A DNA stretch of 59,651 bases, filler included, from Sphacelaria rigidula (lineage: Eukaryota), in NCBI GenBank assembly GCA_964200075.2. It is 3 parts of 3 records of this genome, joined end to end, with 100 filler letters (N's around TTAATTAATTAA, not from the genome) between each part and the next. Parts side by side here need not be neighbours in the genome. Positions count along the whole stretch, not along the records: positions 19,922 to 39,741 come from CAXNAA020000608.1; 2 more parts are not named here. One strand, given 5' to 3'. A program made the translations under genes and the position numbers. Position 1 is the first letter of the stretch, and each line of letters begins with the position of its first letter. Shown piece after piece: positions 19,822-51,714 of the stretch. The notes under the pieces were generated by a model. It saw nothing but the letters and a program-made list of their open reading frames with translations, ran no database searches and had not been told where the DNA came from.

Positions 19822-19921
19822 NNNNNNNNNNNNNNNNNNNNNNNNNNNNNNNNNNNNNNNNNNNNTTAATTAATTAANNNNNNNNNNNNNNNNNNNNNNN
19901 NNNNNNNNNNNNNNNNNNNNN
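19822..19921. other. Artificial contig spacer (44 N + TTAATTAATTAA + 44 N)
   Basis: Exact 100-nt linker with stops in all six frames. Confidence 0.97.
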
Positions 19922-21689
19922 GACTCATCATACTAAACCTAAGTAATTTCCAGACGAATTATTGTTCATCCGACCCTTGAAAAAGTGCGGTCGTTTTTTT
20001 TGCCGATCTGATAGGTCCACCGCATTGATGTTCATTGATGGCTTCAACTCAAAATGATGATTCGCGGTGCGCGGAGAAGAATGCAAGGAGGTGAAAAACA
20101 ATCATTTTCGATCGAAGACATGCGATCGAAAGGCACGAAGCGGCACTTGATTCCTACTATCGTACAGACCACCACGCCAATAACACCTGTTCACACGACC
20201 ATGCAAACTCCATCCAACTCATTAAAGATTGTACTCGTAGCCAAGCGAGAAGTTCTACGAGTAGGGCGCCTGGACGCTAAAAATGATTTCTTCTTTTTTT
20301 TTCACCAACAGACGCAGGCTAACATGCTTGAGCGGTCGACTTGGGCTCCATGTAGGCGGTGCCTGCCTTAGGCTCAGCAGCAATCAGCCGCGGATTGAAG
20401 CTGGGGTTTGCGCGAACAAGCTCACCATGCGTAATCTACGGCACTGCGCTGTACCGGGCCGTCCGCATAGATATGTGGGTATGCTGTACACTCACGCTAC
20501 AAGCGCCTTCCATCGATGATTTTACATCGGTACTAAGATTCTAGCAGTCAGTGCTATTTTACGGTCCAAATCTCCGCCTCGATGGGTTGCAGTCGGCCGT
20601 GGGATTTTTGCATGCACGGCCCTTTCAGGGCATCGGCGTGCATGATTCTTTGCTGGCACTCGATACCCACCGTGGGTTTGTTCATATATCGGGGTCATCT
20701 TTCACGGGCTCACTCGCGGGCTGAACCTCCACGCGCAAGAGTTGGACTTCGGTCGAAAATCGAAACACAGGCCGTCTTCTTGAGCGGGTGCACCCCGTTG
20801 GAAGAGCTCGAACGTATACGGCTCTTGTTATTTTACCACTGTTGGAGGGGCTGAAGCACAACATTTCATATCCTTGGGATACGCCGCACTCAGGTATGAT
20901 ATCCGCCACATTCAGGTAGTCTTTGAAATTCAGGTATAGGTTTGGGAGCGAAAACGGAAGACTCGGGTTGTTGTTTCTCACGTTAGCCCTTTTCCAGAAA
21001 TCTAGCGCCCATGGTCACAAAGCTATGGCACAGGCAGGTAGAAAACAAGGAAGTATAAACAATACACCAATGAACAGGAAACACGGCGCCCCGTAGAGCG
21101 GGATTCTTCACGTCACTGAAAAAAGGAAATATACACAAACAAACGCACAGCTCGCAGGAACAAACTAAAAATAAGGAGAATATCGTCGGCTACATGGTAC
21201 GCGGGCCAGTGAAGCCAAAAAAAGCCTCAGTAGGGAAACGACATCGTGCGACACAGCAGACAAGTCAGGATAGGGCAAGGCAAGGCAGAGTAAGACCACG
21301 TGACAAGGTCCAAAGGAGGGTAGGACAAAAAAAGTGAACCCACAAAAAGGGAAATGGAACGAACAAAACAGGCGAGAACAGGATAAGACAGAACAAAATA
21401 AAAACCACACAAACTAATGCAAACCTAACCAAAAACAAAACTAATGACGGGTCAAGGTGGAAGGAAAAAGGAAAAGGAGGGCGGTGACATCAGTCGGCCA
21501 CGAATCTCGCCACGCGCTTTGCCCACTCCATCTTCGTTTCTTCTCTGGCAGTGGTGTAGGGGGGCTCCCCGCCGCATTTCTATTTGATGTTGTGTCTCCT
21601 CCCGTCCCCGTTGCAGGTTCGTTTTTTCTCGGCCCGTCCGCAGCCCCGCTTTCCCTCATTCGGCCACTTGTGTCGTTTTCCGCTCTCTC

Positions 21690-22030
21690 CACATGGCGCT
21701 TCGCCGATGCTCCCTGTTCTTGTCGGTGTCACTTTGCCATTAACCATCCCACCCTCTCTTGCACCTTGCACTACCATTCTTCTGGTTCCTTGGCGCTCGT
21801 TTTCCACCTCCTCTCCTCTTTCTCTTCTCCCATATCGAAGAACATGAAGTCCTGCTCTAAGCATTGCATCCAGTCAAGCTCCTGCCGCCCTCTGTATCCC
21901 TCTCTCTTCTCCGGTCGTTCATCGATTGTCCATTCTACCTGTAGCACCCCCATGCTCGGTCCAGGCGATTTTCTAGCTCCGTCTCAATATTTCCGTCCTT
22001 GGAAATAGTCGTCCCGAGGTTAGCAAATTT
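21690..22030 (-). mobile_element. RTE-like non-LTR retrotransposon ORF remnant, internally deleted
   Basis: KFANLGTTISKDGNIETELENRLDRAW resembles the post-RT F.YLG...EI..RI..AW motif. It is joined directly to RGRQELDWMQCLEQD...WKTSAKEPEEW, a typical RTE C-terminus. Confidence 0.65.
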
Positions 22031-23973
22031 GCTGGTCGGTGTTATATCTGGCCGCCGACGTTCAGGTATACCTCGCGTTTTCCCCGCCAGAGACTGGCAT
22101 ACAGCGATTTCCGCCAATCCTGTGGCTGGAAGTATGACCGGCTTGTGGTACACATTGGGCCAGCAGTAAAATGTGCATGCCCCGGGTACACAACATTTTT
22201 TTTCAGTTCCCCGAATCAGCCCGATGTAAGTATATCGCTGTGAACCGCGACCAATCTGGTCATGCACAGCTCGACCATTGGTCGATTGGCATAGTTTTGG
22301 CAATGACACTCTTGTACTGCATTGCGTACCGGGTGGGTCTCACTTCGAGTATTTTTCTTATTTTAAAACGCTGCGGAATTGCAGACTATTTCGCCGCACC
22401 GGGCATATGAAAACTTCGATACGCAGAGTCAGGAGTGCATTGGTAATGCTGCGAGATGGTATCAAGCTCGTCAGCAGCTCCATCATGGGAGAGGACTTCC
22501 TAGCCGATTGTCGTCTACAACGAGCGAGCACGGAAAAGAGTATCCAAGTGGGACGGGGCTGCAACGCTTTGCCTCTATCAAATAACGATGGTGATTGTCG
22601 CAGTTGGAAGAAAAGGTGCTGACGGTGATTTTCTGCAACTGGGCCTCCAGAGGATCGAGAAAGTGCTCCAGATAGGCCTGGGAAAAAAGCCCAACCCATA
22701 CTGAGGCGAGAAAGACCAGTTTTCCGCATTTTTGGGGCAGATGCTCGTGTGAAAGTGCTGAAAACACTTGCAACTGAAACAAGAATGTTCTGTACAAAAA
22801 TTTCGTCAACGGCTGGAACCAGATTCTGCAAAAAAGTCGTGTTGACTGAAGTCTAACTCATGACCTCCATAACTGGAGTCTTCTCTATCATTGAGACTAA
22901 TGTGGCACAGCGGTGTCACTCAAAAAGTTGCACGCGGAGCCCAATTTTGAGTAGTTTTTAGCCGAAGTTATACAAGAATCTTCTGCACGCAATTTAAAAA
23001 TTCATGGCGGGATCAGCAACATTTTTTTTCAAATGGAGGTGTGACGTCATCTATCTTTCGCTAAAAATTCCAAATCGCTTCAACTTTTTTTTTTCCTTCT
23101 GTTTCGGAAATTTTCCGCCCATTAATAACTACAATCTCGCGTCAAAAGTTCAGCGCCCAATTCGTAAAGTTAGTCTTTTCGTCACCTGTCAACCGCGGAA
23201 AGGAAGTCTAGGGTGGCTCAGCTCGTTCCCGTCCACTGTATACTTGAATCTGGCGGAAATACGTTCAGGTATACCTGAATCTGTCGTTTGCCCTGAATAA
23301 CCGATAATATGTTGACCCTTCCCTACCACGGCGCAAATAACCTTGTGCCGGGGATCGCGACTATCCTATGATGTATGCCCCCGCGTTCCACCGAGGGGGG
23401 CTGCACTGGTGACGAATGAAGCACAAAAGACATCCCCAAGAAGTACAGTATAGTTGCGCACAGTAGTGTCTTCGCGTCGATATTGTACAGGTGGTAGCAG
23501 ATGATTTTTAGTGCGACACACTAGAAGTGGTATCCCTAAATGTTCCCATGAAGGGTTATTAATTTATTTCATGAAAAAAAATAATCTGCGCTGGTCAGTG
23601 ATTTTTTCGATGCGTATTAGCAAGGGATATTTGTCTCCCGCTCTCTAATTCTTAGTCAAGATCGGGTGAAGAACCGTGCGGTTTCCGACACCCAACAACA
23701 TACTAGCACCCGCTCAACTTCCAAGTCGAGGTCGGGCTAAAAATGGAGCGTTTACGGAGACCCACTATCATTTTAAAAAAGGTTCTTATCTTACGTACTA
23801 TGAGCCTATCTTAACGGAACCAAACAAAAAGCAAAGGAATAACAAAATGCCTCAAATCAGAATGTCATTTGGTCCAATACTGAACCCCTTCTGAGAGGCA
23901 TTGTGGCCACTTTTTACTCCGGGATCATGCGTCAATCTATGATGTTTTTTTCCATACGTATTGATCTTTTCAG

Positions 23974-26900
23974 GTGTGGCTCAACCCACGCGATTTGCCA
24001 TCACCGGAAAAAATGCGCTGCGGAGACTGCAAGCACCCGCTTTCATTTCTGGTCCAGGTGAGTCATGAGTGAGCTTCAGGGTTGCCCCCGCACGACTTCA
24101 ATCAAAAGGCATCCGAATGTTACCGAAGCGGTCCCAGGCATGCCAGGGGGAACGCCGGAGGGCTGCAGGTAGCGTTGTACATACATGCACCGGAGAAGGG
24201 ATAGGCACGGTACGCAATTTTACATTTTCTCGACTGACCAATACGTATAAGTATGGCGGGTCGTTTTTGTCATCGGCTGTGTGCAAATGCAGAGAAAAAA
24301 CTACGTACCCTCCCATATTCGATGTCTAAATAAAATATTGTAGCGCGCGTTGCTTCCACTAGTACTTCGCTCACCCATGGTTCTGCTGCGTCCAAACACC
24401 CCCCTCGAACGTCGTACTCCCTTCTCCTTGATGCCCAGCTGTACTGCCCTCTGGACCACGAGGACGACGCATTCCATCGCTGCCTTTACGTCTTCTGCTG
24501 CCCTCAGGTAAGGGCACAAACAATCGCGCGTGTAAATGCTCCGTCCAGGTCTTTACCGCGTTGCTCCTAACGTCATAATGCGGGCTGTAGCGGCTACGCT
24601 ATACCCTATGAGTGTGTTACAGATGAAGTGCTGTGATCTGTGTTAACCTGTGCGCGCGACTTTGAATGGACTCTAATCATATCTCAGTGGCTTTTGCTTG
24701 CCCTCTGTCTAGCAGGCTTCTTGCTCCACCAACTCAAGCGTGAAGGCCTTTCGCTGCCAACTTCCACGCTCCAACGATTTCTATCCCTACAAACCTGAAG
24801 ACAAAGAGATCCCGAAGGATGCCAGTAACGCTCAGGTGTGAGGTGGTCCGATGCCGTAAGTGTCTTCATGTCGTCGAGAATGTTTCCCGGTACTGCAAAA
24901 TGCACTCTATCTAGCGCAAATACTGCACTACTGCACGCACACCCATTGTCACGAAAGATTCATGCCTGTCGGAAACGCTGACGAGCAACCCTTAGATTGT
25001 GCTCTGAAATTTCCACCAGTGCTAGTGACAATTTTTTCTTTCCCCGTGTGAGAAGCTGTCGGTCTGATGATTGCTACTAACAGTCCTACCCGACCCTACC
25101 TCAGGGAACGCCTAGCACCGAGCGACGAGCAGGCGCCGACCCAGCCGCGTGGGGGGTAAAGCTCTGCTGCGTATGCGGCCAGCTCGCGAAAAGCGCGTGT
25201 TCCAAGTGCAAGCAAGCGCGCTACTGCGGACGAGAGCACCAGGCTGAGCACTGGAAAATGGGGGGGCACAAAGAGGTGTGCAGGCGTACTATTGTCATCG
25301 TTGTTCGCCGGATCAATACTTTGGCTTCTGGTACAGGCGTTCTCCCATGGTTTGCTGCCGCCGAATTGGGTTTGCTCAGTAACCTTCTAGTCCAGGGAGG
25401 GTTCCCCGCTTCTAGCCAGACTGTATGCTTGACACCATTTCTTGTCGCTCTTGAGTGAAATACTCTTGACATACCATTTGATTTCGGTACCCTGCTGCAG
25501 TCTTGCAACCGGCGTGAGGCGACGGACAAGGGTTCTGCTGTGGATGGCACGAGCAAAGCACCACGGACCCACGCGATGGCATCCGTATTTCGAGAGTTGG
25601 AGGTGGAAATCAGGCCGGAGCCGCCGCCGCCACCGGTGGCACCAGATGGACGAACCGCGGAGGATGACCTCGCCAGCAAGCTCGACTTGGGAAAAGCAGG
25701 TGCGTGATGCGAAACGGCGCCCATACCAGGAGTTACGTGCGGGCTATGTATTGGTCCGCTTCAATAATCCAATGCATTGTGGAGATTCGTTTCAACACTA
25801 CGTCTCTTAGCCAGAAAAAATGTTCGCGTGCTGTGATGTACTGTTGCTGCGGCGGCGCAGCCGCCACGCAAGGGCGTAGCCCGACGCAAAGCGCACCCCC
25901 CTGCTCCCTAGCTAGAAAAGGGGGCCCGCTGGAGGCAAAAAATGCGTATTCTGCTTTGCTTCTCCGTAATACCAAGCCTTCTGCTGACCGCCCAAGGGTA
26001 CAGGCGTTCTACGGGTACGAATATATTTTTTGCCAACAAAACGGAACGAAAATAGCGGATATTGAAGAAGATTTTCTGCTGAGTGCCGCCCGCTGAGATA
26101 TGCTGTATACCTTGTACCCTGAGAAATGAAATGCTGCTGGAGTGTCGTTTCATACGTGTGGTCTGCCGCTGGGGGTCGGGCTCTTGCAGCAAGCTAGACG
26201 ATCATTGGGAAAAGACGTTAACCCTTTTGGAACGGTTGGTGAAAAAGTGACGATTTACAAAGACCCATATGCGAGCTTTCGTCAGCGGGAAAACATCACT
26301 TGGAGTTCGGTGCACGAATCTGTCACATTAGTTTACTTGAACTTGAAGTGGTGCACCGGTTTGGTGGGTTGCATCAACAGTTGGAGAAAAACAACCATAT
26401 GTGGCCCAAGAAAACATCGATTGTAAATCGTCACTTTTCCATCAACGGTTCCATAAGGGTCAACACGCACACGATATGTGGATGGTGATGTGTGGTATAG
26501 CATGCGTACTGTAGCAACACATGGGTACATCGTTGCCGCTGATATTTAATGCCGATACATTCCAATGCATGATGTTGGTGTAATACTTTGTCCTTGAAGA
26601 TCGCCCAAAGTTTTTCCAAAATTTGGAGTGTTTTTTCTGTACACTTTATTGCAACGTCAAGCGTGTGCAATCTCTGCCCAGATTTTTGACACTTTTCGCT
26701 TGTACCTTGGTGCAGATATCAGCGACGGTGTCGATGAAGACGCCAAGCTGTCGCAGGCGGAGCTTGACAAGATTGCGGTGAGTCTTGCACCCTGTTTGGT
26801 TCGGACTTCTTTTGATCACGTTTTCTCACTCGACCAGTGGCGGTATGCACCCTGAGGAAGAGCCTTGCGAGTACCACAATTGCGAGAAGCCGTGGTCTCG

Positions 26901-29085
26901 CTGGAAGCCATCATCATCATCTGGCGGGCACGAATGGACGTCTGTGCTACGATTTTCAAGTCTTGAGACCCACCTTGGTTTTGTATTTTCACGAAATATT
27001 TGTGCCTCGAACCCCCCTGAGATCATTCACCATTTGTCATACCATGTTCCTCATCTCTCCACCGTGGTTTTTTTAGTCCTAATTCCCCTCCCCCTTGTCT
27101 CATGTCCCTGGCGAATGATTCAACGTTACCACAGGGAGTCCACGGTGTCAAGGACAAAGTCACGCTGACTTTTTTGACGCGTACTCAGGCCAATCCGCAG
27201 GTACGATCGGTGCGATCGTGGGGCTATTCGAGTACGTTGATTTTGTTGGGAGTTCTACGCTGTTAGTGTACGTATATGTCTAACTAAGATTACGTGCGAA
27301 CTCTCCCGTGCAAGCGGGACAATTAGACCTACTCTTAAAACAGTACACTTCACAATTCCCTTCAGCTCCACGTCACCCTGCGACATTTTTCATTCTTGAA
27401 AGCTTGATGAGATAGTGCAATGTTTTTCCATAACCGTTCACCTTCGACGAGGGCGAGATTCGACCTTCGACCCAAGTTGTCAGTGCCCGAAAGTATGCGC
27501 GTAATAGGCAATACGCGGAGCCCTGATGGTGGATCTGACACTTTGATTCTGAATAACGGGACTTTCTTAGGGTACACGATGAACACAGGAAACACCAGAA
27601 CGCAAGAAGGGCGTCTCTGTTTCCTTCGGGCTAGAGTTTTATTTAGACCACGTTACTGTTTATGTGGCTGTATTGCGCTTAACACATGATAACGTAAGGT
27701 TGATCAGGTAGTGCAATAATTTTTCATCACCGTTCACCTGCTTGTTGTCATCTGTTTTCTGCGTTCCGCATGGCGCTTTTTTCGTCGGCCTTTCTGTGTT
27801 CCTTAGATTCGATTTCCCGCGGTTCGAGGTTCCGGGAATTCAACAGCCGATCCGCCGCGATTTCATGAATTTTGAAGCCGATTTTTTTTTGTCTGTCCGA
27901 TCAACAATATTCAGTGTGTTTCATCCACCATTCCGCGCTCTCAACGTTCGCGTTCTTGAATACAAATCATGCCACACACATGCCAGACCTTCCTCTCCTA
28001 CTCATCACATATAACACAGTTTCATAGCCGATACACACATCAAATTCCTGGCTCAACCTCTTGGGAGGAGTCACTACCTTTACCATATCCCAAATTGAAT
28101 TGATTCCTTTCCACGCCTTTCGCGGAGGACGGGGATCCTTGTATTATATATAAATATGTTTCACACCCCCGGCAATATATGGTCAAAAGATGCAATCGAC
28201 CAAAGATGTACTGAGTTAGGTATACGAGGTTTCAGATTAGGTCCTCGTTCCATTGAGTTGCTGGCTCTTGGCACTTGCTGTGAGCAGTCGAGACAGTGGG
28301 CTCCCGTTCAACCCCTGCAAACGGATGTTTTCATGTACACCCGTATCGCGACTGAACGTGAATAGGTCGTGCGCTATGATGCCGTGGGAGCAGGGCCGTT
28401 GTGGTCCTCGAGCAAGGGCATGCCAGGGGAAGCAGATGTGCCTCCTTGTTCGCGCTGCGGCCGCGCCCGGAAATTTGAATTTCAGGTAACGGTGGCTATG
28501 TTTGAATCACTGATGGTCATTTTTTTGGGTCGCATGTTTTCATGAAGGCCGACACGAAGTGTTGAAAGCACGGTCGTGAGCTATTGCGCTACCTCATCCT
28601 CAAAGACCGCTGCGGATGGCTCAGTTGAACGTACCACCCATGTGCAGAATGATCTCGAGCACGTCTCTCTTCGTGGTCTTTCGTCCATGAATCGCTCTCG
28701 CCCTCAGCACATTCTGTAAACAAGTGGACTTGGCACGCACGACATTTTGACTTTGTTTTCCCCTCTCTCAAAAATCACATATTTATCTCAGGTCATGCCG
28801 CACCTCCTTTACTTTCTGGGCGTGGAAGCGAATGCTACCGTATTGAATCCCCAAACCGCAGGGCCGGGGCCATGCCCACGCCCGTTCGCACCCAGCACAG
28901 GGAAGTGTATGGATTGGGGCACGTTGGCCGTGTACACGTGTCCTGCTAGTTGCAGTACTGGCGCCGGTCGTGGTACGGATGCCGGTAGTGAAGAGGACGG
29001 GGCGATTGCAAGCGGCAAAGATGGCGGCGGCACGATCGTCGAGGCGTACGTCGAGGAGTTCGTTTGGCGGCAGCCGCCACCGTAA
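23974..29085 (+). CDS. PDCD2: PDCD2 / Zfrp8-family protein with MYND zinc finger and PDCD2_C domain, 5'-partial, 9 exons
   Basis: Exons 23974-24057, 24439-24507, 24716-24835, 25105-25275, 25501-25699, 26716-26777, 27135-27200, 28366-28485, 28792-29085 splice in frame to TAA. Motifs: WLNPRDLP..CGDCKHPLSFLVQLYCP..FHRCLYVFCC, RCQLPRSNDFY, MYND CCVCG..CSKCKQARYCGREHQAEHWKMGGHKESC, QVVRY..PLW..CSRCGRARKFEFQVMPHLL, DWGTLAVYTC..YVEEFVW. The first exon was not identified. Confidence 0.93.
26222..26459. mobile_element. piggyBac-like MITE (238 bp) in a PDCD2 intron
   Basis: TTAA|CCCT...AGGG|TCAA ends with imperfect ~40-bp TIRs (cccttttggaacggttggtgaaaaagtgacgatttacaa vs cccttatggaaccgttgatggaaaagtgacgatttacaa). 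Confidence 0.8.
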
Positions 29086-29745
29086 TGCGTGCTCGCGTCG
29101 TTTGGTGTGCCCTTGACTTTGTGTAGCCCCTATCGTAGCGTGTCCTAGATGTAAAGTGAATGAACCCGTACTTTTCAGTAGTCGAAGCCAGTTTAAAAAA
29201 TGCTGGAGTATATCAAACTCCGCGGTTGTGAGGAGAGCCGGTTCGGAGTGTCTTGGTGGTGGTGTGGCCGAGTTGGCACTGGTCGAGGTGCCGATGAAGG
29301 ACTGTTGGTAGCTGTAACGACGTAAATTCAATCAATGACGACACTTACAGGGAGGCAACAAGGGAAAGACGATTAGCAAGGTAGTTACGAGCCAGCTGTG
29401 AAACCGCGTGATAGGGTTTTGTCTGCTCAACGATGGCGGGAGTTTCACGCCACCTATTTACGCGTACACTGTCACTGGCTCGTTCGCACACTGTAGAGCT
29501 CTGTAGCTGCAGAGCTGGAGGAGCAAGTGCTGCTATGAAATCCATCACGTTTGGCAAAAACTACATGTACGTCAAGAAAGGTAAATCCAACTTGTCCAGA
29601 TTGAACACAACGAACTAAGCATACTAACTATTTCGTTTCGTATAGCACATACCGCATACTTTGGCGCACTAGCGCACCTACAACTGTACACATCAAAATC
29701 TATCACTGCTGGAGCCATACGCACGAAACACACCTCAAGCAATCT

Positions 29746-32700
29746 TCACTCTTCATCTAAGTCGACCTCGATCCTTAACGTCGCATCGGCCGACAATGCA
29801 CCTCCCTTCCCAGTGAACCCATTGTCATCCACTGACACCAGGATTTCATGCGTTCCCACATCACACCCACTCGTCGCGGAGCATCGATAACTTAATGACT
29901 CCAGTGCCTTGTTGACGTCGTCGATGCCCCCGCTGAAACGTAACGTGGGATCAGAGATCCCTTCCCCCAATGAGAAAGATAAGCCCGCCCTTGCTCCTAG
30001 GCTCAGACGCCCGCTTGCAGCAATAACATTAACTGTAACGGGACCCTCAATCTTCAATCCACCGGCGCTGTAGTAGGCCGTCTCTCGAACGTCCGGATCT
30101 TTCACCGTCAGTAACCCCCCCGCACCAATCCCGACCGAATATTCAAGCGTTGTCCTCATCCTATCCCATTTGAAGTTGACCGACGGTGGACTATTAACGG
30201 GGGACAAAAACACATGAATAGCAGCTTCTGTCGTTCGCGGACCACCAAGTGCACATGGCGCCGTTGTGATTGCCGCCGTGGCGTTAAATTCAGACCTAAT
30301 TGATGAATTGAAACCCTCATCACCGATGCATGGAGTAGGGTCATCTGTGACCGTAACCCGGATGGCGTCTTCGCCAACCATGCCCTGCAAACCCCGGTAT
30401 CGTAAATCTCGCATAGCACGATTGATTTCTCCTACTGTGCCCTTGAATCGAAGGGTGGGTGACGGCGATAGAGCTGGAGATTCTATTGACGTCGATGTGT
30501 TAGTACTGTTGCGGTAGGTTTCGCCGAAGCCACCAAGTGTGAGACCGAAGATGCTACCGAGAATGAGTTCGCCCTTGTCACACTCAAGAGTGACCGTCAG
30601 CTGGTCATCGGGGCCACCGTCGACGTCGTAAACGACGAGAGCCTGTGTCCATCACAAGCAAAGGGCACCAAAATGGAAATTTAATTTGACGGCAGTTAAT
30701 CTAGTAGCAATCGCTGCAGGGCAGGTGGGGAGGGTAGAGATGCATCGAAAAGGGGGCGTCGAACACCAGCAAATTTCATCACACACGGGCGCTGTGAACA
30801 AGAGGAGCCAACAAAGCGAATTGAATGCGTTCGGTCGAAAGGTATACTTACAACAAAATAAACTGTGGTCAGCTCTTATCCAATTCTTGAACGCTCTGAC
30901 CTGAGAAATGCCTTCCCTTGTCGTGTCATTTATCCCCATCATGTGCTCCACCGCCACCAGCGGATCCTGAGTAGCGGGGAGATATAACGCCCCGTCGAAC
31001 ACGGCCATGCGAGCCGGCCTCCCCGCCAGGAGCGATTCCCGATCGGGGGAAATGTCGCCAGCTGTTCTCTGCTCAAAGGCACGCCGAGTTCCATCCCTAG
31101 TACCGTCTGATAGCCACAGTTGCGCACCACCCCAACCCTGAGCCACTCCAGATGGATACGCTGCATCGTACCCCCCTCCGTTTGCTAAAAAGAATAACCT
31201 CTCACCGCCACTGGTAGAAGGTGAGTTAAGTGGCGTGAAGAACGATGGGAATCCTCCTGGTGATCCCGGCCGAACGTCAGCCACGAGGACCGTGCCAGCG
31301 GTTGTCCCGTCTGTCACCCACATTTCCGGCCCGGTGGTACAGTCATCCGCTTGGAAGAACACCTTGCCCTCCCACGCAGTGAGGTGCGACGGCATAGAAC
31401 TCCTTGTCCCCGGACATATATCTGCCACAATGGAAGTCCCAGAAGTTGTACCATCGCTCGACCACAATTCGTGTCCAGACGACCCGTCATTTGCTGACAG
31501 GAATAGTAGTCCAAGGGTCGCCTCCCAGGTCAAGTACAACGGGTCCGAGCCGTGCGCCCCGAGACGTGCGTCTTTCACGAGATAGGTACCGGCCCCACCC
31601 GAGACGGGAAACCCTAAGTCCGGCCGCGGGTCGAGATACCCTAGGGCACCATCGCTGCGCCATAGCTCGCGGCCATTGATGCCATCGTCTGCCGTGAAGA
31701 AGAGGATCGTTTCGCTCGCCGCGACAAAATCCCTGGGCTTGGAGCCAACGTGCCCACGAATGATATCCTTCCAAAGTGAGAAAAGAAGAGAGCAAAAACG
31801 AAGACTCGTTCAGATTTAGATGAAGAAAATGAACGATTAGTGTACCATTCAAGAGTGGCTTGCAATGTATGAGATTTCTTCAAGAGTAAAGCGATGGTGG
31901 ATGGCCGTGTTCCTGCCACGGGAGCCCTGAGCCAGCACGCGAGCTCCATCTGGGGTATGGATTCCGATCTATGACGGAAGTGTGGGATCTACGATTATGT
32001 GGAATGTTGGAATTTTCTACATGAGCACCCAGCTGTGATTGAGGTTCGTCTAAGGTATTAATTGAGTGTACGGCTATATATATATATATATATATGTATA
32101 CATACTCGAGACATGAGCCCCCATGAGCCCCCATCTGGAAGATAAATGTCTATCCAAGATATCCATCTGGAAGGTGGATGCTCATCTGGGAGATGGATAT
32201 CCATATTGGAACCCATCTCGGACATCGTATTTGAGACCTAGACATCCATCTGGGATGATAATCTGGATATGGGATGTCCACGTGAGACGAACCTCAATCA
32301 CAGCTGGGTGGTTTTTGTTCCGGATGCAGATCCCTCTAGCCACTCAACCCTAACCCTAACCCTAACCCTAACCCTAACCCTAATCCGTATCCAACTTGTG
32401 CGCTGGTCGTCGTTCACTAGAGTAGCGTCCGCTCTCAGAACGTCCTGTGTGCTAGTAGGGAGTACGTTTATTTTTGCTAGCATGCGCTTGAAGAGCACAG
32501 TGCAGAGTACGATTGCACGGCATAAATTTTGGCGGCGTGAGCTGAAAGGACGTCGAGCAGCGCTCGCAGATACAGACGTCCCAGATGGAATTGGGTCATA
32601 GGTGGATGTCCCAGAGAGATGTGAAGTTCAAGATGGATACCCCCGGCGAATATCTAGATGGACTTGAAATCGCAGATGGACGTCCTGAGTAGGTCCTCAC

Positions 32701-35700
32701 GTCTCAGGTGGGCATCCCAGTCGCAGTGGGGTATCCATGTTCCAGATGGAGTTTGCACGATAGTGCAAGTGCGTGCCTGTGACCTAACATTATTCAATTC
32801 GGTCTACGTGTATCGTCGGTGGCTTTACCTGCCAAGCTCATGTAATATATACACATTCATTTGTACCCACCTCGACGAGGTCTGCGCTGCCCGAGTTTTC
32901 ATTCCACCGGAACACTTCTATCCCTGTCAGGTCTGTATGCGCAGCGAAGAACAGTGCTCCGTCGAAAACAGTAAGGAAACTAGGAGAGGATCCCGAGATT
33001 CCAGCACGCAGATCGTCCACCCTGCGTGTGCCCCTGCCAGTGCCATCTGTGCGCCAGAGTTCTGCTCCCGCACGGCTGTAACAACCACTGTCCTCTCGCT
33101 CGCCCCACCGGCAGGGGCCAGTCGCTGCTAACCCCGTGATCGTTGTGAACTTCAACGGCCCTTGTTCGCCCGCAACGCACACGATACCGGCGAAACTCGA
33201 AATCTCTTCGTCGTGATCGATTTCCGGGCGGTGGGAATCCCTGCGTCCGGCATGTTTATATGCTCCGGTGCTGTGTGGGCATGTTTTGCGTAGACAGGGC
33301 ACGTCGAGGCGCGGCGACGAAAAGTAAATGGCACGGCCTACAGTACCTAGTGCTGCTCTGCCAAAAGTGCATTCGGTGCATATTTAGTTTCATACGTTCG
33401 TGGTCTCGAGGGGTCAAGTCATATTTCCGGTATTTGCCTACCAACGAGCATTAGATCATCCTAACATGTGAAATCAAACGCGGGAAAAAATATTCTCCAA
33501 GCCAAACCCTGATAGAATGCTTACCGTTGACTGTCAGAAAAGCGGAACCGTACGCGAGAACGCCCTCCCCATGAGTAGCCGCTCCAGCCACACTGTCCGA
33601 AGTAGGCCATGGGCTCAGCCGAGGCTTCTTCGCGATCATCTCCGTGAGATCCCGGGAACAGCAAGAACCCCTGTTCATGTGAATCGAGCAAACGAACGTA
33701 GTGTGAAGGTATTCAAGACAGCGTAATGACATCTGTTTCTCACTGGTGGGCTTGCATGTTTCGAACCATCACCGGATCGTATCCCTGATAAAAGCCGTGG
33801 GTACTGCCTGCCGTGTGTCTAGCTCCCATGTGTCTAGCTCGAGATGTACTGAAAGCTCTAGTATTCACGCACGGTGTTTCATTGTCAACAGGTGGTAACT
33901 GTTTAGGTCGAACATTCGCAGCGCGTGCTGATACCTTACATGGCATCTTCATGGGTCTACACATCTTCCAGTGACCAGAGTATACGCTATACCTGCTTTG
34001 TGTTGGCATGATGGAAACCGTCCGGACAGTCATATCTAGCACCTGGATCCCACTCATCCTGAATGCAAGATACGGGAAAACGGCGCAGTCAACAACGAAA
34101 ACGGCAACCAAAGTGTTCATCGAATAGTCAAAACTTCATGTGCCTATGGCTTCGGGGAGTACTTCGCTACCAACCTGGTCAGTCATACACAAGTCGCAAG
34201 GACACTTGACCGCTACATCTTGTACTTTCCGTGCTATTTGCGCGCTTTAACATGATTTTATCTTGGTTTTAGTACGGCCGCGTTTGCTCAGATTTTAGTG
34301 CACAAGGCTCAGAAACCTGAGAAAATGTGACATTCTATGTCACCGGACACGTCTCGTTTGTGGCTGACCTACCGCGGAGGTTGATGAAGCCTTCCTCAAC
34401 TCACCTCCGACACGGCGAAATACACTCTTGGGTCAAACGAGCTCTGTCTGAAGCCCCCACAATGATCTTGGTGCTCAAGCGGCAACATCCATCCCGTGTC
34501 GACACCGTTCGCCTGTTGTGCCGGCACCGATTGCGATGTCAATGAGGTAGCGAGTGCACGAAGCGTGGCGCAGATGAAGAAAAAAAGCTTTCATTCGTTT
34601 TTCTTCCTGGAAGTGATGCCAACTACCACCATTAGCTTGCCTTTACCCTGTCGAATATAAAAAATTCACGCTGTCACGCGCCAACGTATCAAAATTACAC
34701 CAATTTAGTTGGTTCCACGTGTGACAATACCATCGCTATTTCGACACACCATCCTTCGGTAGGCCCTCCCCCGAGTAACTTACCTGGAAATACAAGTAGT
34801 CCCCAAACGGTGTCAGGTTGATAGGAGCTCCACTCTGTTCCCCAGGGAAAATATCTTTCACCAATACTGTTCCACTCGTGGTTCCATCGGTTCTCCAAAG
34901 CTCGGCTCCGTGATCAGCATCCGTTGCCTGCCGATATCGCACAGATTTGGGTGTGCCACCGGTTGAGGGCGACGGTGGTGTTTCCACCCTCGGCATGATT
35001 GGTGATCTGATGAAAGGGGAGTCTAGTAGCTTGAAACAAGATTACTCATAGGTGTCAATCTGCATATATGCGCTGCCGCAGGTGAGAAAACCAGTACTGG
35101 ATCAGTGCAACACTACGTTAGCACCCGCCACAATTCGAGCCGTACCTGGAAATACAGACTTCCCGCCCAAACGGCAAAGTGCCGAGGGGATGCATCTCCT
35201 ACCCCTTTGTTCAAGTCAGCAACAAGCGTTTCCTTCCACTGCATCTCAGATGTTTTCCCCCAGCTTCCGGCATCTTTTCCGGGAAAGACGCCCTGACTTC
35301 GCCAGAGTTCGATCCCCGTCCTCAACGGAAGATATGCCGATGCTTCCACCGCCGCGACGAAGGATCCCCGCCACTCTGCCCCCGTGAGACGCCTCTCCTC
35401 CCCTTCGTCCAGCTGCACTATATCGTGTCCACCATCAGCAAAGGGCAGCAGAATGGTTGGCGCATCGTTCACCGGGAGGACAGAGATGGGAACCGTAGCT
35501 ATACCTTGCGCCGAACTACCGGTGTCGATGCCCGCCACTTGAGATCCCAAACCTTGCACGGGGTCCGTCGCCGACCCTGAAAACCCCCCGTCAAACGTCT
35601 CCACTTGTACTAATGCACCGGTGCCGTAGAAATTCTTGTCCGGAGTAAACTTCAACGATTGCAAAGCGGCATTGGCATCGGAGAGTGACGCGCTGAAGGT

Positions 35701-38700
35701 GATTGTGCGCGCGGCATCCAAGAAACTCGCGCTCCACGGAGCCCAATCTCCCGTGATATCATCACGGAATAGTAGACCAGTGAGATCAGGTCCCAGAGAG
35801 CTCGGCTTCCATGGATGGCGACTATTTCCCGGCTCTACCCCGGCCCGTGTACCATGCCAGGCGAGCGAAACGGTACCATGCAGTGCCGTCAATGTAATGG
35901 TGACAACTGCCAGTTCGCCCCCAGCTTCTGCGAGATCAACGTCACGAATTGCGAAGCCCGGTAGCAATAGTTGGGCGTCCTCAGTAACGAACTCGCGCTT
36001 GCCGTACCTTGCACTAGGAGAAAGCAAGTCCCCTGTACGGAGCATAGCGTGGAAGCGTGGAGATGGCGGCGTGACTACCGGTGGATCGTTCACCGCAGCA
36101 ACGCGGACGTGCATGGTCGTTTCTGCGACCAAGGGTGGCAAAATTGACTCAGCTTCCGCACCATTCGCAGCGTCGTCGACTCGTGATTCCTCCACGTGAA
36201 TGTGCACGACGTCAACACCGTTCCAGTTGATATCCGGCCAGTACGTCATAGCCTCCAACGCGCGGTTGCAGTCGTCTAGTCGCCCTGTGAATCTTGCCTC
36301 ACGCCACCACGGTACCGCTGGAGCTCCAGGATAAACACTCGGCTTCGGGATAAGCATGCTGTTGTCAGCGCTCACAGCAGAAAATCGGGCTCCTTGGGTG
36401 AGGGACACCATTGTCTTCCCCTCGACCGACGTTTCATTTGCAGGCGCAGCTGCAATCTCAAAAGCTAGGCCCGCTGTTTTAGGGAAGAAGATTCTTCCGT
36501 TGCCGACATCAACGGTAACTTGAAATTGTTGACCGCCGACACCAACGGGGTAGTCGTCGTAAGAAGTGCCCGAGGAAATACCGAGGATCTGACTGTGTAA
36601 CTGGCGTGGGTTGACGTCTGCATCGTACAGAGTAACGTTGTACAAGTCCATGCGACCGTCTTCCAACATCTCCAACGGCGGGGCCGGCGCCGTCATCCCG
36701 ACACCAGTGACTCCCGACGTGGACACAAGTAGAAGCGGAGCATCGTCAATAGGACGTATCTCAACAGGTATCCCCCTGGCATCTTTCCCGGGTCCGCCGC
36801 TACCCGTGAAGCCCCGGTCATCTACCGATATAATCACATCATCGAAGCCACTCCAGTCAGGATCAGGGCTATAAGTTATGAGGGCTAGAGCGGCGTTGAT
36901 GAGGTGCAATCCACCGCGCATGTCTAACTGATGTGCCGTTCCGTCGGGATCTGTTCCTTGAAGAAATAAGATGCCGGGAGGTGCGGTGGTGCCCGTGGAA
37001 AACCCCAGAGAGCCATGCTGCGCCTCCACTTTAACATCAATTTGAGCCCCCGGTCCTGCCTCTTTTACATCGAAATCTTCAACATAAATACCTTCCAGGG
37101 TCATTGGTGTGTCTTCGGACCCAATAACGCGGTCAACGGTGGTGATCCGACGACACTGACGAACAACAGGAGCGGGGTGTTGCGGGTGAGGATTTCCTAT
37201 TTTGCCCCCCCGGGAATCGCAGGGCTCGTGCACATAAGTTGCCCCGGGTACGTGCACCTGTGGGGGGTCGTTTCTCCCCGCGGCCACCACCACAACCACG
37301 CGGGCATGAGAGGAGAGCCCTAAGGGGTCTTCGGCGGAGAGATGAATACCGTCTGCCTGCTCGGAATGGTGCACGGAGCAGGTGATGGGAAAAACTCGGA
37401 TTGCTCATCAATGGTTAGCTCATTTGTGTTGCGAGGTGGGAGACAATTGACTATAGGAGACTCATTAGGCTTAATTGCATGTTGCAATAGCGAACGTCAC
37501 AAGTGGGAATCACATAATAAATCCACTCCCTTTTGCTCCCAAGCGCGAATAGTAGGATGTGAAGAAAAGTTGTTTGACCTACTTATGACAAGGTTTCGCT
37601 CTCTTTGGAAACATTCTCGCCTGCTCAGACGATGTCCAATCCTGTGGCGGATAGTAAACGAGGCCTGATAGTGCGTCGTTCAGCGCGATCTCCGTGCCTA
37701 CCACAACCAAACTCCCGTCTACATATCCGTCCTCGTCAGTCCCAGTTTCGATGTCCACACGGGCTTGCGAAGCATCGAGCAATGACAAGTTTCCTTTCTC
37801 AGCCCATATCTCCAGCCGAAGGTATTCTTCGTTGTCGGGATCGCTTACAGAAACCTCGTGAACGACCATTGCTTCGTCCTCGGCAGCCATAAGCGGGTAC
37901 TGCGGGGCCGACCACCAAGGGCGGTCTGGTATGGAGCTGACCACCACTGTGACAGACTGTTGGTCGATCAGCCCGGGCCCATCTCCTCCGCGAACCTAGC
38001 GCCCAGTACGCAGAGGAGGTGTAGGAAATGAGGGATCACTCTCGCACTTCATGCATCGAAGCATAGACTACTCGTTTAGTACTCGTTTAGTAAATTGCGC
38101 AGTGTGTTAGTTGCCGACTTTACGTGTACAAGGGCCGTCGATCGAAAATAGCCACGATGGATATCAAATATCCACGACACGCGTTCGAGATCCAAGAATG
38201 TAGACAGGTATTAGCTGCGGTTAGATTCCATACGACCGTGATCGACGGCTCCAGATGACAGCAAACATGGCACAAATAGCATAATGGGTAAATCCCTGAT
38301 AACTGGTATTGTGCATGCCACCAGATAGACCTATATGGCGGGTCGATTGTCTTACCTCGCTTGACCAACCTCGGTCATCGGCCGTCACCACGATTGTGTC
38401 GTTCCCGCTCCACTGCTCGTGCGGTCGGTACTTCAATCCGACCAACGCCGTGTTAGCGTCGTCAAGGCCGGCATAGAAGGCGGCGAATCCGTCGAAAGAC
38501 AATTCTCCAGACCACATGCTTGGTTCCCCAGAAACAAAACGTAGGCCTTCTACTGTTGAAAGCGACAACGTGCCGTTTCCACAGCCGAGTGTAACCAAAA
38601 TAAATGACCCGGAGAACTCTGCAAGATCTACATCTGTGTAGAAAAAAGCACGGGGTACGAAGGTTTTGAGGGCAATAAACGCGACGCATGCGTCAGTCCA

Positions 38701-39617
38701 AATGCTATAACAGTACACGAGAAGGCCATCGCCATGAGATCATATGAGGCGACCAAGCAAGTTACCGAGTAACGAAGGCATTGTAAAAGTGACGATGATC
38801 GTTCGATTCTTATGTCTAGCACATCACTCAACGATACTGCCGAGGAAGCCTCGAAGCATGTTGCCAACACACTTCACCATGATGTTGTCGACGATTACCA
38901 CTAAGCCTTACCGTGCGCTGCAACAAATCATCAGTGGCTATCAAAATATTCTTATGGCACTTTTTCGATCGTGCGCGACACCTAACCTTCCTGTTTCACC
39001 TGATACAGACACTTCCGAAACATCGAGCGAGCCGTCTTCATCCACGTAGAGCGGGGTTGCTGTGGCCAATTCTAAGTCTTCCGCCTCGGGCCAGCGGACA
39101 GATGACGGACGACGGAACGCTAGGCCTGGCAACCGCACCCTAGGAGGGTCGTTTACCGCCACGATTTGAACCCTGCATGCCGTCAGAGTAACGGATAAAT
39201 GTCGGGTTATGCAAAGGGTTGAAACCCTCAAACACGGATTCGCCGCAGAGCTAGGAAGAACGCTGGAAAAAAAGGCGATTTTCTCAATTAAAATAAGCAA
39301 CGTCGTCAGAATATTGCTCGACCACTCATGAGCACCCACCAAAACTTGTTCTCAGCTTCCACGGCCACGGGTTCCAGTCCGCCCAGTCCCACATGGCTGT
39401 TGCTCGAGCGGACGATTATCGCGTTGGGAATGCTTCCGAGGGTATTCCATTCAGGGTCCCCGCGGTATACCGCGTTCCGAAGGGCCATGTTGACGTCACC
39501 AGTGTGCCCGATGAACACTATATACTCGTTCGCGACCCCGTTGCCAGCGACGAACTCAAGGCCAGCTCTGCTCGCTAGGGTGACCAGACCGTGAGGAGCG
39601 GAGATCTCCACACGCAC
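29746..39617 (-). CDS. Large probable extracellular protein: cadherin-like repeats plus ELWxxDGT beta-propeller, 5'-partial, 12 exons, >=1980 aa
   Basis: Exons in transcript order: 39617-39340, 39172-39000, 38633-38356, 37995-37621, 37356-35146, 34927-34784, 34512-34405, 34058-33993, 33670-33525, 33270-32871, 31767-30901, 30642-29746. All are phase-compatible, total 5943 nt, ending in TGA. Repeated VNDPP / ED / DxD / Y.P..dW.G.D motifs occur with about 8 ELW-type repeats (ELWRSQG, ELWRTDGT x2, EVFRWN, ELWRSDG, ELWSSDGT, EMWVTDGT, QLWLSDGT). Confidence 0.88.
31939..32756. mobile_element. Non-autonomous TIR element in an intron of the ELWxxDGT gene
   Basis: Imperfect TIRs (gcgagctccatctggggtatggattcc vs gcaaactccatctggaacatggatacc). 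CCATCTGG-like motifs cluster on the left and CCAGATGG-like motifs on the right. Confidence 0.6.
32346..32381 (+). repeat. Interstitial telomere-type repeat (AACCCT)6
   Basis: Six perfect units read directly; this is TTAGGG on the minus strand. Confidence 0.9.
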
Positions 39618-39741
39618 CTTGTGAAGGGCGAGAGAGAGGAAGGGGCAAACGCAACGTGTGATGCACTAGTGAACAACAAATTGTGAGAATTGAGGTTTAA
39701 CTTCGAGATGAGGCTCAAGCCTAAAACAGTGCTTTCCCCAC

Positions 39742-39841
39742 NNNNNNNNNNNNNNNNNNNNNNNNNNNNNNNNNNNNNNNNNNNNTTAATTAATTAANNN
39801 NNNNNNNNNNNNNNNNNNNNNNNNNNNNNNNNNNNNNNNNN
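39742..39841. other. Artificial contig spacer (44 N + TTAATTAATTAA + 44 N)
   Basis: Identical to the first linker. Confidence 0.97.
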
Positions 39842-43744: not shown

Positions 43745-44165
43745 TACATAACAGAGGATTCTATGAAATGAGGTTCATCAATGAAATGAGGTTCGAGCCC
43801 AAAACAGTACTTTCTCCACNNNNNNNNNNGCCCAATGACTTTTTTGTCGGCCTAATGTCCCTCGATTGCGTAGATACTTTTTCAGCGCATTTTACCGACT
43901 CTGTGAGCTTACAGCGCTGACCGAAACTGCTGTTTTCCCTGATATCACCCCCCTAACAAATGAGTAGAAATAGCGGTTTCGGACAGCGCTGTAAGCTCAC
44001 AGAGTCCATAAAATACGCTGAAGAAGTATCTACGCAATCGAGGAGCATTAGGCCTGCGAGAAAGGTATTGGGCACCATCGCTAAAAGCGTGGAGAAAGTA
44101 CTGTTTTGAGCTCGAACCTCATTTCATTGAGGAACCTCATTTTATAGAATCCTCTGTTACATGTA
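43745..44165. mobile_element. Long palindromic (foldback) MITE
   Basis: Inverted arms of ~190 bp (taacagaggattctatgaaatgaggttc... / ...gaacctcattttatagaatcctctgtta) with TA ends. It contains the 10-N gap at 43820-43829. Confidence 0.8.
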
Positions 44166-51500: not shown

Positions 51501-51714
51501 TGAACGAGTCCTCCGTGGTCGAATCATCAGTAAACGACGCTCATGTAGTCGAGTCGTCAGTGGTCGAGTCGTCTTTGAATGATTCATCTATGATCGAGTC
51601 GTCTGTAATCAAATTATCCGTGGTGGAGTCGTCCGTGGTGGAGTCCCTAAACGAATCGTCTGTAGCCAAGTCATGCGTAGTCGAAGCGTTCGTGATGGAG
51701 TCGTTTCACAAGCG

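Follow-up and report, generated by a model that had tools for sequence, protein, structure and literature searches.

A cadherin-like repeat, an ELWxxDGT propeller and a four-cysteine module appear to be nested in a giant stalk protein encoded by a conserved gene of stramenopiles

Does a brown alga encode a giant stalk protein in which one domain is set inside another, and what might such a protein present at its tip? This question is raised by a locus of Sphacelaria rigidula within a window of 59,651 nucleotides (the whole stretch of DNA analysed), for which an initial annotation had proposed a spliced adhesin-like gene with an ELWxxDGT propeller inserted in its penultimate cadherin-like repeat. 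We find that a real gene of the brown alga lies here, represented by its 3′ two-thirds, and that its product is a giant stalk protein predicted to be secreted.

Coding blocks were set by minus-strand stop-to-stop ORFs and by tblastn of the best homologue, P0001, and splice sites were picked for best fit to P0001, with the 5′ junctions read directly. Spliced together, 12 minus-strand exons (39617 to 29746) give an open frame of 1980 codons plus stop (5943 nt) without an internal stop, in agreement with the exon number, minimum length of 1980 aa and ends (39617 and 29746) proposed initially. Of the 11 introns, ten have GT-AG borders; the remaining one is of the GC-AG type, with its donor (GCGAGA) at 37620. 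All exons lie within one contig (19922–39741), which also carries an adjoining PDCD2-like eukaryotic gene. The first exon of the part present (exon 1, 39340–39617, minus strand as are all exons and domains below; aa 1–92) opens directly at an acceptor AG (39619–39618), so further exons must lie upstream, past the contig end; and because the contig stops at 39741, followed by an artificial join (39742–39841, N44-TTAATTAATTAA-N44), the window does not include the gene's 5′ part. A search for further exons found none elsewhere in the window, with 0 of 125 HSPs falling outside 29700–39741.

The stalk comprises one partial (R0), six intact (R1–R5 and R7) and one split (R6) long-form cadherin-like repeat. 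A hidden Markov model (HMM) of the intact repeats yields nine domain matches on the gene model, namely partial R0, R1–R5, the two pieces of R6 (R6N and R6C) and R7. The units span 130–220 aa; each opens with a VNDPP motif, continues with ED..L and DxD motifs and closes with ...LxYxP...DxGxxGxGG. Their NDxP/DxD motifs may bind Ca2+ and stiffen the stalk. Exon 1 encodes the C-terminal part of R0, exon 2 (39000–39172) the N part of R1 (VNDPP...EDGSLDVSEVSVS), with the next intron just 5′ of the DVD motif, and exon 3 (38356–38633) the remainder of R1 (DVDLAEF...TADDRGWSSE), while exon 4 (37621–37995), which carries the GC donor, holds the R1 end and most of R2. The 737-aa exon 5 (35146–37356) encodes the R2 end, R3 (37296–36772), R4 (36771–36109), R5 (36108–35488), R6N and the first ELW repeat, and exon 12 (30642–29746) encodes R6C and R7 (29746–30216, including the stop codon at 29748–29746). 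The protein ends in DLDEE*, as first proposed, and no 19-residue window reaches a mean hydropathy of 1.8, which bears out the claim that a C-terminal transmembrane segment is lacking.

The initial count of about eight cadherin-like repeats holds. The label itself comes, within the window, from matches to Pfam and NCBIfam models that stay below the curated thresholds: exon 5 scores 21.2 bits against Big_9 (PF17963; cut-off 23.6) and 17.2 against Cadherin_4 (PF17803; cut-off 25.1). Above the cut-offs are the orthologue P0001 (Big_9, 31.9 against 23.6) and a bacterial copy of the repeat unit (Cadherin_4, 36.5/25.1; Cadherin_5, PF17892, 29.4/26.5; Big_9, 27.5/23.6). The tandem-95 model (NF012211, a ~95-aa unit with a cut-off of 90 bits) scores 31.6 on exon 5 and 41.3 on P0001, so that the alga's repeats are only remotely related to this family and the protein is not a member of it. 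The classical cadherin model (PF00028) matches none of the exons at E<=1, and P0001 shows no match to it at E<=0.1. Sequence searches of the PDB returned no related solved structure: exon 5 and a profile of the non-ELW insert described below had 0 matches each, and a profile of four repeats had three at chance level (E 0.32–0.92).

Eight motif-bearing ELWxxDGT repeats are readable in the translation, the motif of the fourth being degenerate (IEVFRWNE). The first closes exon 5, the second occupies exon 6 (34784–34927), the third and fourth lie in exon 10 (33270–32871) at 33071–32871, and the fifth to eighth, with the propeller tail, make up exon 11 (30901–31767), which ends in phase 0 exactly at the junction between propeller and repeat. 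The NCBIfam model TIGR04534 (a ~47-aa repeat, cut-off 65 bits) recognizes 5+1+1 stretches and, weakly, a further one where exon 5 ends: the exon-11 ORF (198.2 bits, five stretches) and the exon-6 ORF (69.5) exceed the cut-off, and the exon-10 ORF (57.8) by itself falls under it; the orthologue P0001 scores 340.1 bits over six stretches. In an AF2 model of P0001 860–1730 (11-row alignment, mean pLDDT 62.7), the ELW parts show a confident four-strand periodicity (pLDDT 70–92). The top Foldseek matches are all beta-propellers with probability 1.0, but with TM of 0.13–0.32 (sortilin Vps10p, E 7.5e-8; LRP YWTD; prolyl-oligopeptidase type). The ELW repeats probably build a beta-propeller, which would have eight blades.

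The eight repeats are not, however, all that interrupts R6: the insert of ~660 aa also contains a non-ELW module of ~150–180 aa, encoded by exons 7–10. By sequence, the propeller is itself split between its second and third repeats by this 4-Cys module, a third nesting level that was absent from the initial annotation. The module (~150 aa) and its linker (33072–34512) are encoded by exons 7 (34512–34405), 8 (34058–33993) and 9 (33670–33525) and by the first part of exon 10 (33270–33072). No Pfam family matches it at E<=1, and the insert has no usable match in a protein atlas; modelled alone, it folds confidently (pLDDT 82.4, pTM 0.75). Moreover, 13 signal-peptide-bearing proteins of ~1400 aa without ELW motifs (P0241–P0253, two of them named ‘hypothetical protein [Myxococcales bacterium]’ and derived from MAGs) carry it as tandem arrays of five to six near-full copies plus a split last copy. 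Because it forms such ELW-free arrays in proteins of secreted type, the module is an autonomous domain, which folds independently of the propeller. In a tree, the bacterial and the nested copies fall on opposite sides of one branch, and the tree gives no direction. Foldseek returned no match at E<=0.001 (best E 1.4, TM 0.19–0.36); 14 of the first 20 chains listed, judged by reading, are Link modules of CD44, LYVE-1 and TSG-6, snake C-type lectin-like proteins, EgtB and pertussis toxin subunits, all at non-significant values (E 1.4–3.5, TM 0.13–0.36). We take these proteins to share the CTLD superfold, and the 4-Cys module possibly has a C-type-lectin/Link-like fold.

That the gene is real, as proposed, is supported by the annotated Ectocarpus fasciculatus protein P0001, which is collinear with the spliced product and 65% identical over 1820 aligned residues. 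The three-level nest is kept in at least 19 proteins, one of them from a filamentous oomycete (P0065). The order R6N, ELW 1–2, 4-Cys, ELW 3–8, R6C is collinear, at 32–36% identity, in P0040, P0045, P0048, P0053 and P0150; since the first four are single uninterrupted proteins, the arrangement is not a splicing artefact. HMMs spanning the junctions gave 11 (N side) and 13 (C side) matches, which among the 261 proteins fetched all fall in members of the family. The head, formed by the propeller and the 4-Cys module, is the best-conserved part (0.48–0.49 identity, against 0.24–0.35 for ordinary repeats). Full-length relatives reach 2,700–8,000 aa, and the 7982-aa P0150 begins with the signal-peptide-like sequence MMMVQLLLLLVLSSS; the algal protein is accordingly predicted to be secreted. 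As regards the bacterial origin first suggested, all three module types have bacterial relatives, but the assembled nest was found in its own family only. When genomes of bacteria and archaea were scanned with P0045, three loci (in Planctomycetota, Saprospiraceae and Bdellovibrionales MAGs) matched, in the ELW repeats only (25–36% identity), none with the insert. Literature searches on ELWxxDGT found nothing, and those on horizontal transfer of cadherin-like genes in brown algae found nothing relevant. In the excerpt available of a preprint on brown-alga comparative genomics (10.1101/2024.02.19.579948), cadherin appears only as a domain of FG-GAP proteins and propellers only in connection with receptor kinases.

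Taken together, we consider it fairly probable that this conserved stramenopile gene encodes a giant extracellular stalk-and-head protein in which a split repeat carries a propeller, which in turn carries the 4-Cys module, as a ligand-binding head. The stalk would consist of long-form, bacterial-type cadherin-like beta-sandwich repeats; in the penultimate one the chain would exit after the first strand or strands, build the propeller, which is interrupted by the compact 4-Cys module, and return to complete the sandwich. Propeller and module would form the ligand-binding end, displaced from the stalk axis in the manner of the RTX adhesins of bacteria, and would likely bind a glycan of the cell wall or matrix, or else a foreign surface. 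Ligand binding by the head is suggested by analogy, and a part in adhesion is a further inference. With the same architecture, the protein might instead be a structural or organizing component of the matrix, or a secreted sensor or scaffold, whose head binds the alga's own wall polymers (alginate, fucans) and does not serve to attach it to substrates or other organisms. We regard this as a serious though somewhat unlikely alternative, which gains from the absence of a membrane anchor or C-terminal transmembrane segment in the protein and its relatives, from the occurrence of the family in a filamentous oomycete, and from the glycosaminoglycan-binding Link modules that head the non-significant fold matches of the 4-Cys module. 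The closest analogues of known function, the RTX adhesins, are adhesins according to the excerpted source cited below; the present results do not separate a matrix role from adhesion. A bolder version of the stalk-and-head reading would make this the first eukaryotic split-domain adhesin, extended to a three-level nest. The family would have arisen by a single joining of three module types from bacteria, before brown algae and oomycetes diverged; the 4-Cys module, shared with secreted proteins of Myxococcales, would be an undescribed glycan-binding domain distantly akin to Link and C-type-lectin domains; and the protein would tether cells to anionic wall polysaccharides or substrates. We hold this to be speculative and, as a whole, unlikely.

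In the stalk-and-head reading, R6 is one domain that has been split. Its N-terminal piece, R6N (35389–35487; aa 992–1024, ...VLPVNDAPTILLPFADGGHDIVQLDEGEERR), covers repeat HMM positions 1–17, and its motif stretch (VLPVNDAPTILLP...QLDEGEE) lies at 35481–35398. After these first ~30 residues (NDAP...DEGEE) come the ~660 inserted ones, and the repeat resumes at 30642 (ALVVYDVD...) with R6C (30217–30642; ALVVYDVDGGPDDQLTVTLECDKGEL...INRAMRDLRY...; HMM positions ~60–162, i-E 4e-12). The interruption thus sits where it was first placed, with the N piece at 35481–35398 and the C piece starting exactly at 30642. When the two pieces are joined, the composite matches HMM positions 1–162 with 39.5–43.0 bits; R6C by itself reaches 35.4, so that joining gains only 4–8 bits. 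Against Pfam Cadherin_4, R6N aligns to profile positions 1–16, below the cut-off. In the bacterial protein P0003, however, Cadherin_4 (36.5 bits, cut-off 25.1) matches one repeat unit from profile position 2 to 71, crossing the site of the alga's interruption, and because it spans both sides of that site the insertion falls, by homology, inside one domain. On this comparison, the two halves of R6 would form a single domain.

A quite unlikely reading is that the propeller merely lies between two repeats, with R6N as a conserved linker or terminal strand of R5 and R6C as a shortened but self-sufficient repeat, so that there is no first-level insertion. The AF2 model lends it some weight: R6N has pLDDT 44–55, R6C begins with values below 50, and the AMVIYDID segment has no assigned strand, although one is expected before its DID motif. 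Likewise, R6N by itself is a marginal HMM match (0.0 bits, i-E 0.058), and the HMM alignment can be extended to take in part of the propeller tail (INDTTREGISQ...), though at low posterior probabilities. Yet in every intact repeat, of the alga and of its bacterial relatives, the NDxP...ED..L and DxD segments belong to one unit; Cadherin_4 covers both segments; R6C lacks an NDxP...ED segment of normal length; R6N is, at 0.44 identity to distant homologues, conserved above whole ordinary repeats (0.24–0.35); and the split-domain solution is documented in the excerpted account of RTX adhesins. A complex prediction of R6C (residues 700–865) with R6N (16–52), run without controls or alignment, scored 0.22 and 0.25, where the mark is 0.34, and speaks for neither reading. 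Finally, although the window consists of contigs concatenated with artificial linkers and all three module types are mostly bacterial, an artefact, whether bacterial contamination, a pseudogene or a mis-assembly chimera, is extremely improbable and is rejected, given a single contig with all 12 exons, 11 spliceosomal-type introns in an otherwise open 1980-codon frame, a eukaryotic PDCD2-like neighbour, and collinearity with the Ectocarpus protein and with uninterrupted homologues.

Brown algae and oomycetes have complex walls and attach to surfaces, but how their extracellular proteins serve adhesion or the matrix is understood in few cases. The family described here is a conserved candidate with a clearly bounded head (propeller plus 4-Cys module), suitable for expression and for binding assays with glycans such as alginate and fucans. 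Its 4-Cys module is a new, confidently folding domain of ~130–150 aa without a Pfam family, found both in the giant proteins of stramenopiles and, as tandem arrays, in Myxococcales. The locus also illustrates, for genome annotation, how ORF tracks and domain scanners fragment such genes and overlook nested domains.

In the excerpted account of RTX adhesins (PMC12077191), ligand-binding domains bud from split Ig-like domains near the C-terminal tip, and a second level of nesting occurs where a vWFA domain leaves the beta-roll and bears an insert of its own; adhesins with split domains include Aeromonas hydrophila AhLap, Vibrio cholerae FrhA and Marinomonas MpIBP. As far as that excerpt goes, the algal protein shares with them a long stalk of Ig/cadherin-like extender repeats and would also share, near the C-terminal tip, a beta-sandwich broken after its first strand by a ligand domain with adjacent termini, a split that in the alga is seen at the sequence level, from the HMM and Cadherin_4 matches. 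It differs in that the gene is eukaryotic and has introns, that there are three nesting levels, and that a cadherin-like repeat with DLDEE as its last residues forms the C terminus; no RTX nonapeptide beta-roll (PF00353 or other RTX) or type I secretion signal was found in the alga's exons or in P0001. The RTX retention module is N-terminal; none matched in the part present, and the N terminus of the gene lies outside the window. What would be projected in the alga is an ELWxxDGT propeller, a type of domain missing from the ligand binders that the excerpt names for RTX adhesins, and the likeness shown between the alga's repeats and RTX extenders consists of cadherin-like motifs. The split-domain design is known from bacterial adhesins and not described in algae; the principle is less novel because it is already described, in the excerpt cited, for RTX adhesins, and its apparent presence here suggests that split-domain presentation on a repeat stalk is used in eukaryotes too.

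With bacterial ELWxxDGT proteins (for example P0015 and P0019; Planctomycetota, Myxococcota, Bacteroidota) the algal family shares its ELW repeats, which match at 198–340 bits, and many of these bacterial proteins also bear cadherin-like, Big_9 or tandem-95 repeats. In P0015, unlike the alga, the ELW array sits between DUF4347 and the cadherin-like repeats, and within the set of 261 fetched proteins no bacterial one with ELW repeats has a junction-spanning match or the 4-Cys module. The alga's repeat unit itself recurs in the bacterial giants P0003 (‘VCBS repeat-containing protein’, DUF4347), P0002 and P0004 (‘tandem-95 repeat protein’) as a unit of ~135 aa (NDAP...ED...DxD...GxLxL...INAALxxLxYxP...DxGxxGxGG), with nine (of 13 domains in all), eight and nine near-full matches to the algal repeat HMM, respectively, and E of 1e-74 to 1e-78 with exon 5. 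Identity to these giants is ~25%; they lack the inserted propeller, and the algal units are longer and more variable (130–220 aa). The Myxococcales-type 4-Cys modules are 37–47% identical to the algal insert and share with it the motifs YDCP, QCGW, FRFxDS and FAGIVC, but stand in free arrays, without ELW motifs or cadherin-like repeats. Among stramenopiles, a parallel may be sought in the ‘true cadherins’ of oomycetes described in the Pythium ultimum genome paper (PMC2926784), which, in the excerpt available, are likewise extracellular, with cadherin-type repeats and no catenin-binding domain. According to the same excerpt, those proteins match the metazoan Cadherin EC model, whereas the algal protein, without PF00028, groups with the bacterial cadherin-like families.

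The spliced giant gene with nested domains that the initial annotation had described on the minus strand (39617..29746) was confirmed, and its nest proved to be one level deeper: a cadherin-like repeat is interrupted by an ELWxxDGT region, a likely propeller, which itself contains a module with four conserved cysteines (the 4-Cys module). On this strand, nine stop-to-stop ORF pieces with recognisable repeat protein sequence lie between 29746 and 39665. The top database relative, P0001 ('unnamed protein product, partial', 1874 aa), comes from Ectocarpus fasciculatus and is 61% identical to the 763-aa ORF holding exon 5. A tblastn search of the window with P0001 returned ten collinear blocks; at the junctions between them, every frame-keeping GT/GC...AG intron was tried and scored against P0001, yielding a clear best intron at each, and the three 5′ junctions outside P0001 coverage were taken directly from the sequence. 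The resulting model joins 12 exons into 5943 nt, an uninterrupted reading frame of 1980 codons and a stop codon. This matches exactly the 12 exons and at least 1980 aa proposed initially, and across 1820 aligned residues the model shares 65% identity with P0001. Ten introns are GT-AG and one is GC-AG (donor GCGAGA, 37620). Exons 10 and 11 are separated by an intron of 1,103 bp, in which a perfect (AACCCT)x6.3 array (32346-32383), complementary to the telomere-type TTAGGG repeat, occurs interstitially.

The assembly cuts the gene short. Exon 1 opens at an acceptor AG (39619-39618), and about 120 nt further upstream the sequence meets a linker, N44-TTAATTAATTAA-N44 (39742-39841). An identical linker of 44 N, TTAATTAATTAA and 44 N occupies 19822-19921; because both are artificial six-frame-stop joins between concatenated contigs, the contig of the gene spans 19922-39741 and the sequence beyond is unrelated. 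As the window thus concatenates at least three contigs, adjacency across the linkers carries no meaning. Apart from the linkers, positions 43820-43829 form a gap of 10 N. No other exon of the gene was found in the window, with none of the 125 tblastn HSPs obtained with family queries falling outside 29700-39741. Since residues 1-1869 of P0001 align to 1066-2843 of the homologue P0045 (2858 aa), and other relatives measure 2719, 4872, 5656 and 7982 aa, the model lacks at least about 900 residues at its N-terminal end. Downstream on the gene's contig follows a convergent PDCD2-like eukaryotic gene (25081-29085, plus strand), its 3′ end facing that of the giant gene; it comprises a MYND zinc finger (zf-MYND) exon (25081-25458, plus strand, E 8e-8) and a PDCD2_C exon (28720-29085, plus strand, E 1e-9). 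The next contig carries, on the minus strand, a 614-codon open frame (49696-51702) with about 107 copies of a 15-nt unit; it encodes a Thr/Asp/Ser-rich 5-aa repeat (...TTDDS...) that matches nothing in Pfam, and may represent a coding array of mucin-like or low-complexity type.

The intact repeat units align well with each other and with those of P0001. Their common pattern reads, in order, V.V..VNDPP, a variable segment, ..ED..L.L..V.V.DxD, h.V.h....G.L.L, ..GL.F..G.. and L.F.G....N.AL..L.Y.P...W.G.D.h.h.V.D.G..G.GG. An HMM built from the intact units matches the model nine times, as a partial R0, R1-R5, two pieces of R6 and R7 (numbered from the N-terminal end). The domain library gave no classical Cadherin match in the window, and the window's own matches stayed below cut-off (Big_9, 21.2 bits against 23.6; Cadherin_4, 17.2 against 25.1; tandem-95, 31.6 against 90); P0001 passes Big_9 with 31.9 bits (cut-off 23.6). 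The same HMM shows that the ~135-aa unit is abundant in bacterial giant proteins, with 13 matches (9 near-full) in P0003, 18 (8) in P0002 and 10 (9) in P0004, and one P0003 unit exceeds the cut-offs of Cadherin_4, Cadherin_5 and Big_9 alike. These matches justify the earlier label 'cadherin-like' in the sense of the long bacterial form, but not as true cadherin. In cadherin-type domains, NDxP/DxD motifs bind Ca2+, and we infer the same for those of the giant protein.

The penultimate repeat, R6, was initially thought to be interrupted by the ELW region and to resume at 30642, and the two HMM pieces bear this out. R6N (35487-35389, minus strand; aa 992-1024, VLPVNDAPTILLPFADGGHDIVQLDEGEERR) is a normal repeat start covering HMM positions 1-17; R6C (ALVVYDVDGGPDDQLTVTLECDKGEL...INRAMRDLRY..., from 30642, minus strand) covers positions ~60 to 162 (i-E 4e-12), and 658 residues separate the two. 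When joined, they give one end-to-end alignment over positions 1-162 with a modest gain in score (39.5-43.0 bits versus 35.4 for R6C alone). On the P0003 unit, Cadherin_4 matches over profile positions 2-71 of 71, starting ahead of NDAP, running across EDTALVF and ISVSDLD and reaching the following strands, and hence spans the exact site interrupted in the alga. R6N is also better conserved than whole ordinary repeats (identity to four distant homologues 0.44 versus 0.24-0.35). Both junctions are kept in all collinear homologues, and the matches of junction-spanning HMMs (11 at the N-side junction, 13 at the C-side one) were confined to the family among the 261 proteins examined, about 220 of which have ELW arrays. 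The Cadherin_4 span and the conservation of R6N and of the junctions argue that R6N and R6C belong to one domain. Exons 11 and 12 are parted by a phase-0 intron (30901/30642) that coincides exactly with the propeller-to-repeat junction (ISQ|ALVVYDVD); an intron in R1 (39000/38633) occupies the homologous spot just before the DVD motif, in phase 1. The N-side junction is intron-free.

Within the insert, eight motif-bearing ELW repeats are legible in the translation (aa 1049, 1113, 1329, 1375, which is degenerate, 1426, 1492, 1541 and 1608), in agreement with the roughly eight counted earlier. NCBIfam TIGR04534 matches the window with 198 bits (five stretches), 69.5 and 57.8, and weakly at the end of exon 5. 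In an AF2 model of P0001 860-1730 (11-row alignment; mean pLDDT 62.7), the ELW parts are the confident ones (pLDDT 70-92, with four-strand periodicity), R6N scoring 44-55 and the start of R6C <50. All best Foldseek matches of the model in the PDB are beta-propellers, among them sortilin Vps10p, LRP2/LRP6 YWTD and prolyl-oligopeptidase types (probability 1.0, with low TM of 0.13-0.32), and the modelled ELW region is likely an eight-bladed propeller. ELW proteins are very common, with 38,236 representatives at E<=0.001.

ELW repeats 2 and 3 are separated by a stretch of about 180 residues that does not resemble ELW sequence; exons 7-10 encode it, and its four conserved cysteines fall in the motifs D.C.G.R.S, YDCP.G.HWATT.E, QCGW.GY.WGG..R..FRF.DS..TGA.KHAG.RDS and DFAGIVCV. 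Searches with this 4-Cys module found no Pfam family at E<=1 (18 aligned members) and no PDB sequence. Modelled alone from the 18-row alignment, it reached pLDDT 82.4 (core 92-97) and pTM 0.75. Foldseek gave no match at E<=0.001; among the best 20 of the non-significant hits, 14 are Link modules (CD44, LYVE-1, TSG-6), snake C-type lectin-like proteins, EgtB and pertussis toxin subunits, all of which we take to share the C-type-lectin-like superfold, so that such a fold for the module is a lead only. A search limited to this segment returned 24 proteins, 13 of which (P0241-P0253, two of them named as Myxococcales MAG proteins) are ~1400 aa long, have bacterial-type signal peptides, lack the ELW motif and carry 5-6 near-full tandem copies plus a split last one. 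From this it follows that the module is an autonomous domain, housed within the propeller in the alga. In all 13, the last copy is parted by about 100 residues (HMM ~18-98 and ~84-146), and nesting thus recurs there too. In a quick maximum-likelihood tree built from 87 near-full copies, a single branch (SH-aLRT 90) separates the 21 nested from the 66 bacterial-type copies; the tree indicates no direction of transfer.

Nest and module occur together in P0001, in P0065 from the oomycete Nothophytophthora sp., and in P0040, P0045, P0048, P0053, P0059, P0150, P0151, P0168, P0204 and P0254-P0261. Five members (P0059, P0065, P0151, P0168 and P0204) have two propeller-plus-module units, and the upstream modules of these five group in a well-supported clade of their own (SH-aLRT 98), suggestive of an ancient duplication of the complete head. 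The 7982-aa P0150 starts N-terminally with MMMVQLLLLLVLSSS. Most members end with the same last repeat, and none has a C-terminal hydrophobic segment. With P0045 as query, 185,579 species genomes of bacteria and archaea yielded only three loci, with ELW repeats.

The giant protein is distinct from the 'true cadherin' reported for the oomycete Pythium, and RTX adhesin identity is ruled out by domain searches, the RTX beta-roll being absent from both the protein and P0001. The available text of the literature on 'ELWxxDGT' and of a brown-alga genomics preprint contains no description of this family that we could find. According to one study, bacterial RTX adhesins have, close to their C-terminal tip, Ig-like 'split domains' in which the chain exits after the first strand and forms a ligand-binding domain before the split domain completes its fold, and show a second nesting level where a vWFA domain with its own insert comes out of a beta-roll (PMC12077191). 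Judged against that account, the protein of the alga follows the same split-domain logic, though its parts are others and it adds a level, and because of this shared logic, propeller and 4-Cys module may be read as a ligand-binding head on the repeat stalk. The initial interpretation, a secreted, Ca2+-stiffened stalk displaying a propeller head, is thus partly supported: the nesting stands at the level of sequence, and the single-domain fold of R6 and the ligand-binding function are predicted only. Bacteria, on the published account, already use the nesting principle; what is new, as far as checked, is that a stramenopile gene family has it too, with a triple nest and a 4-Cys module not described before.
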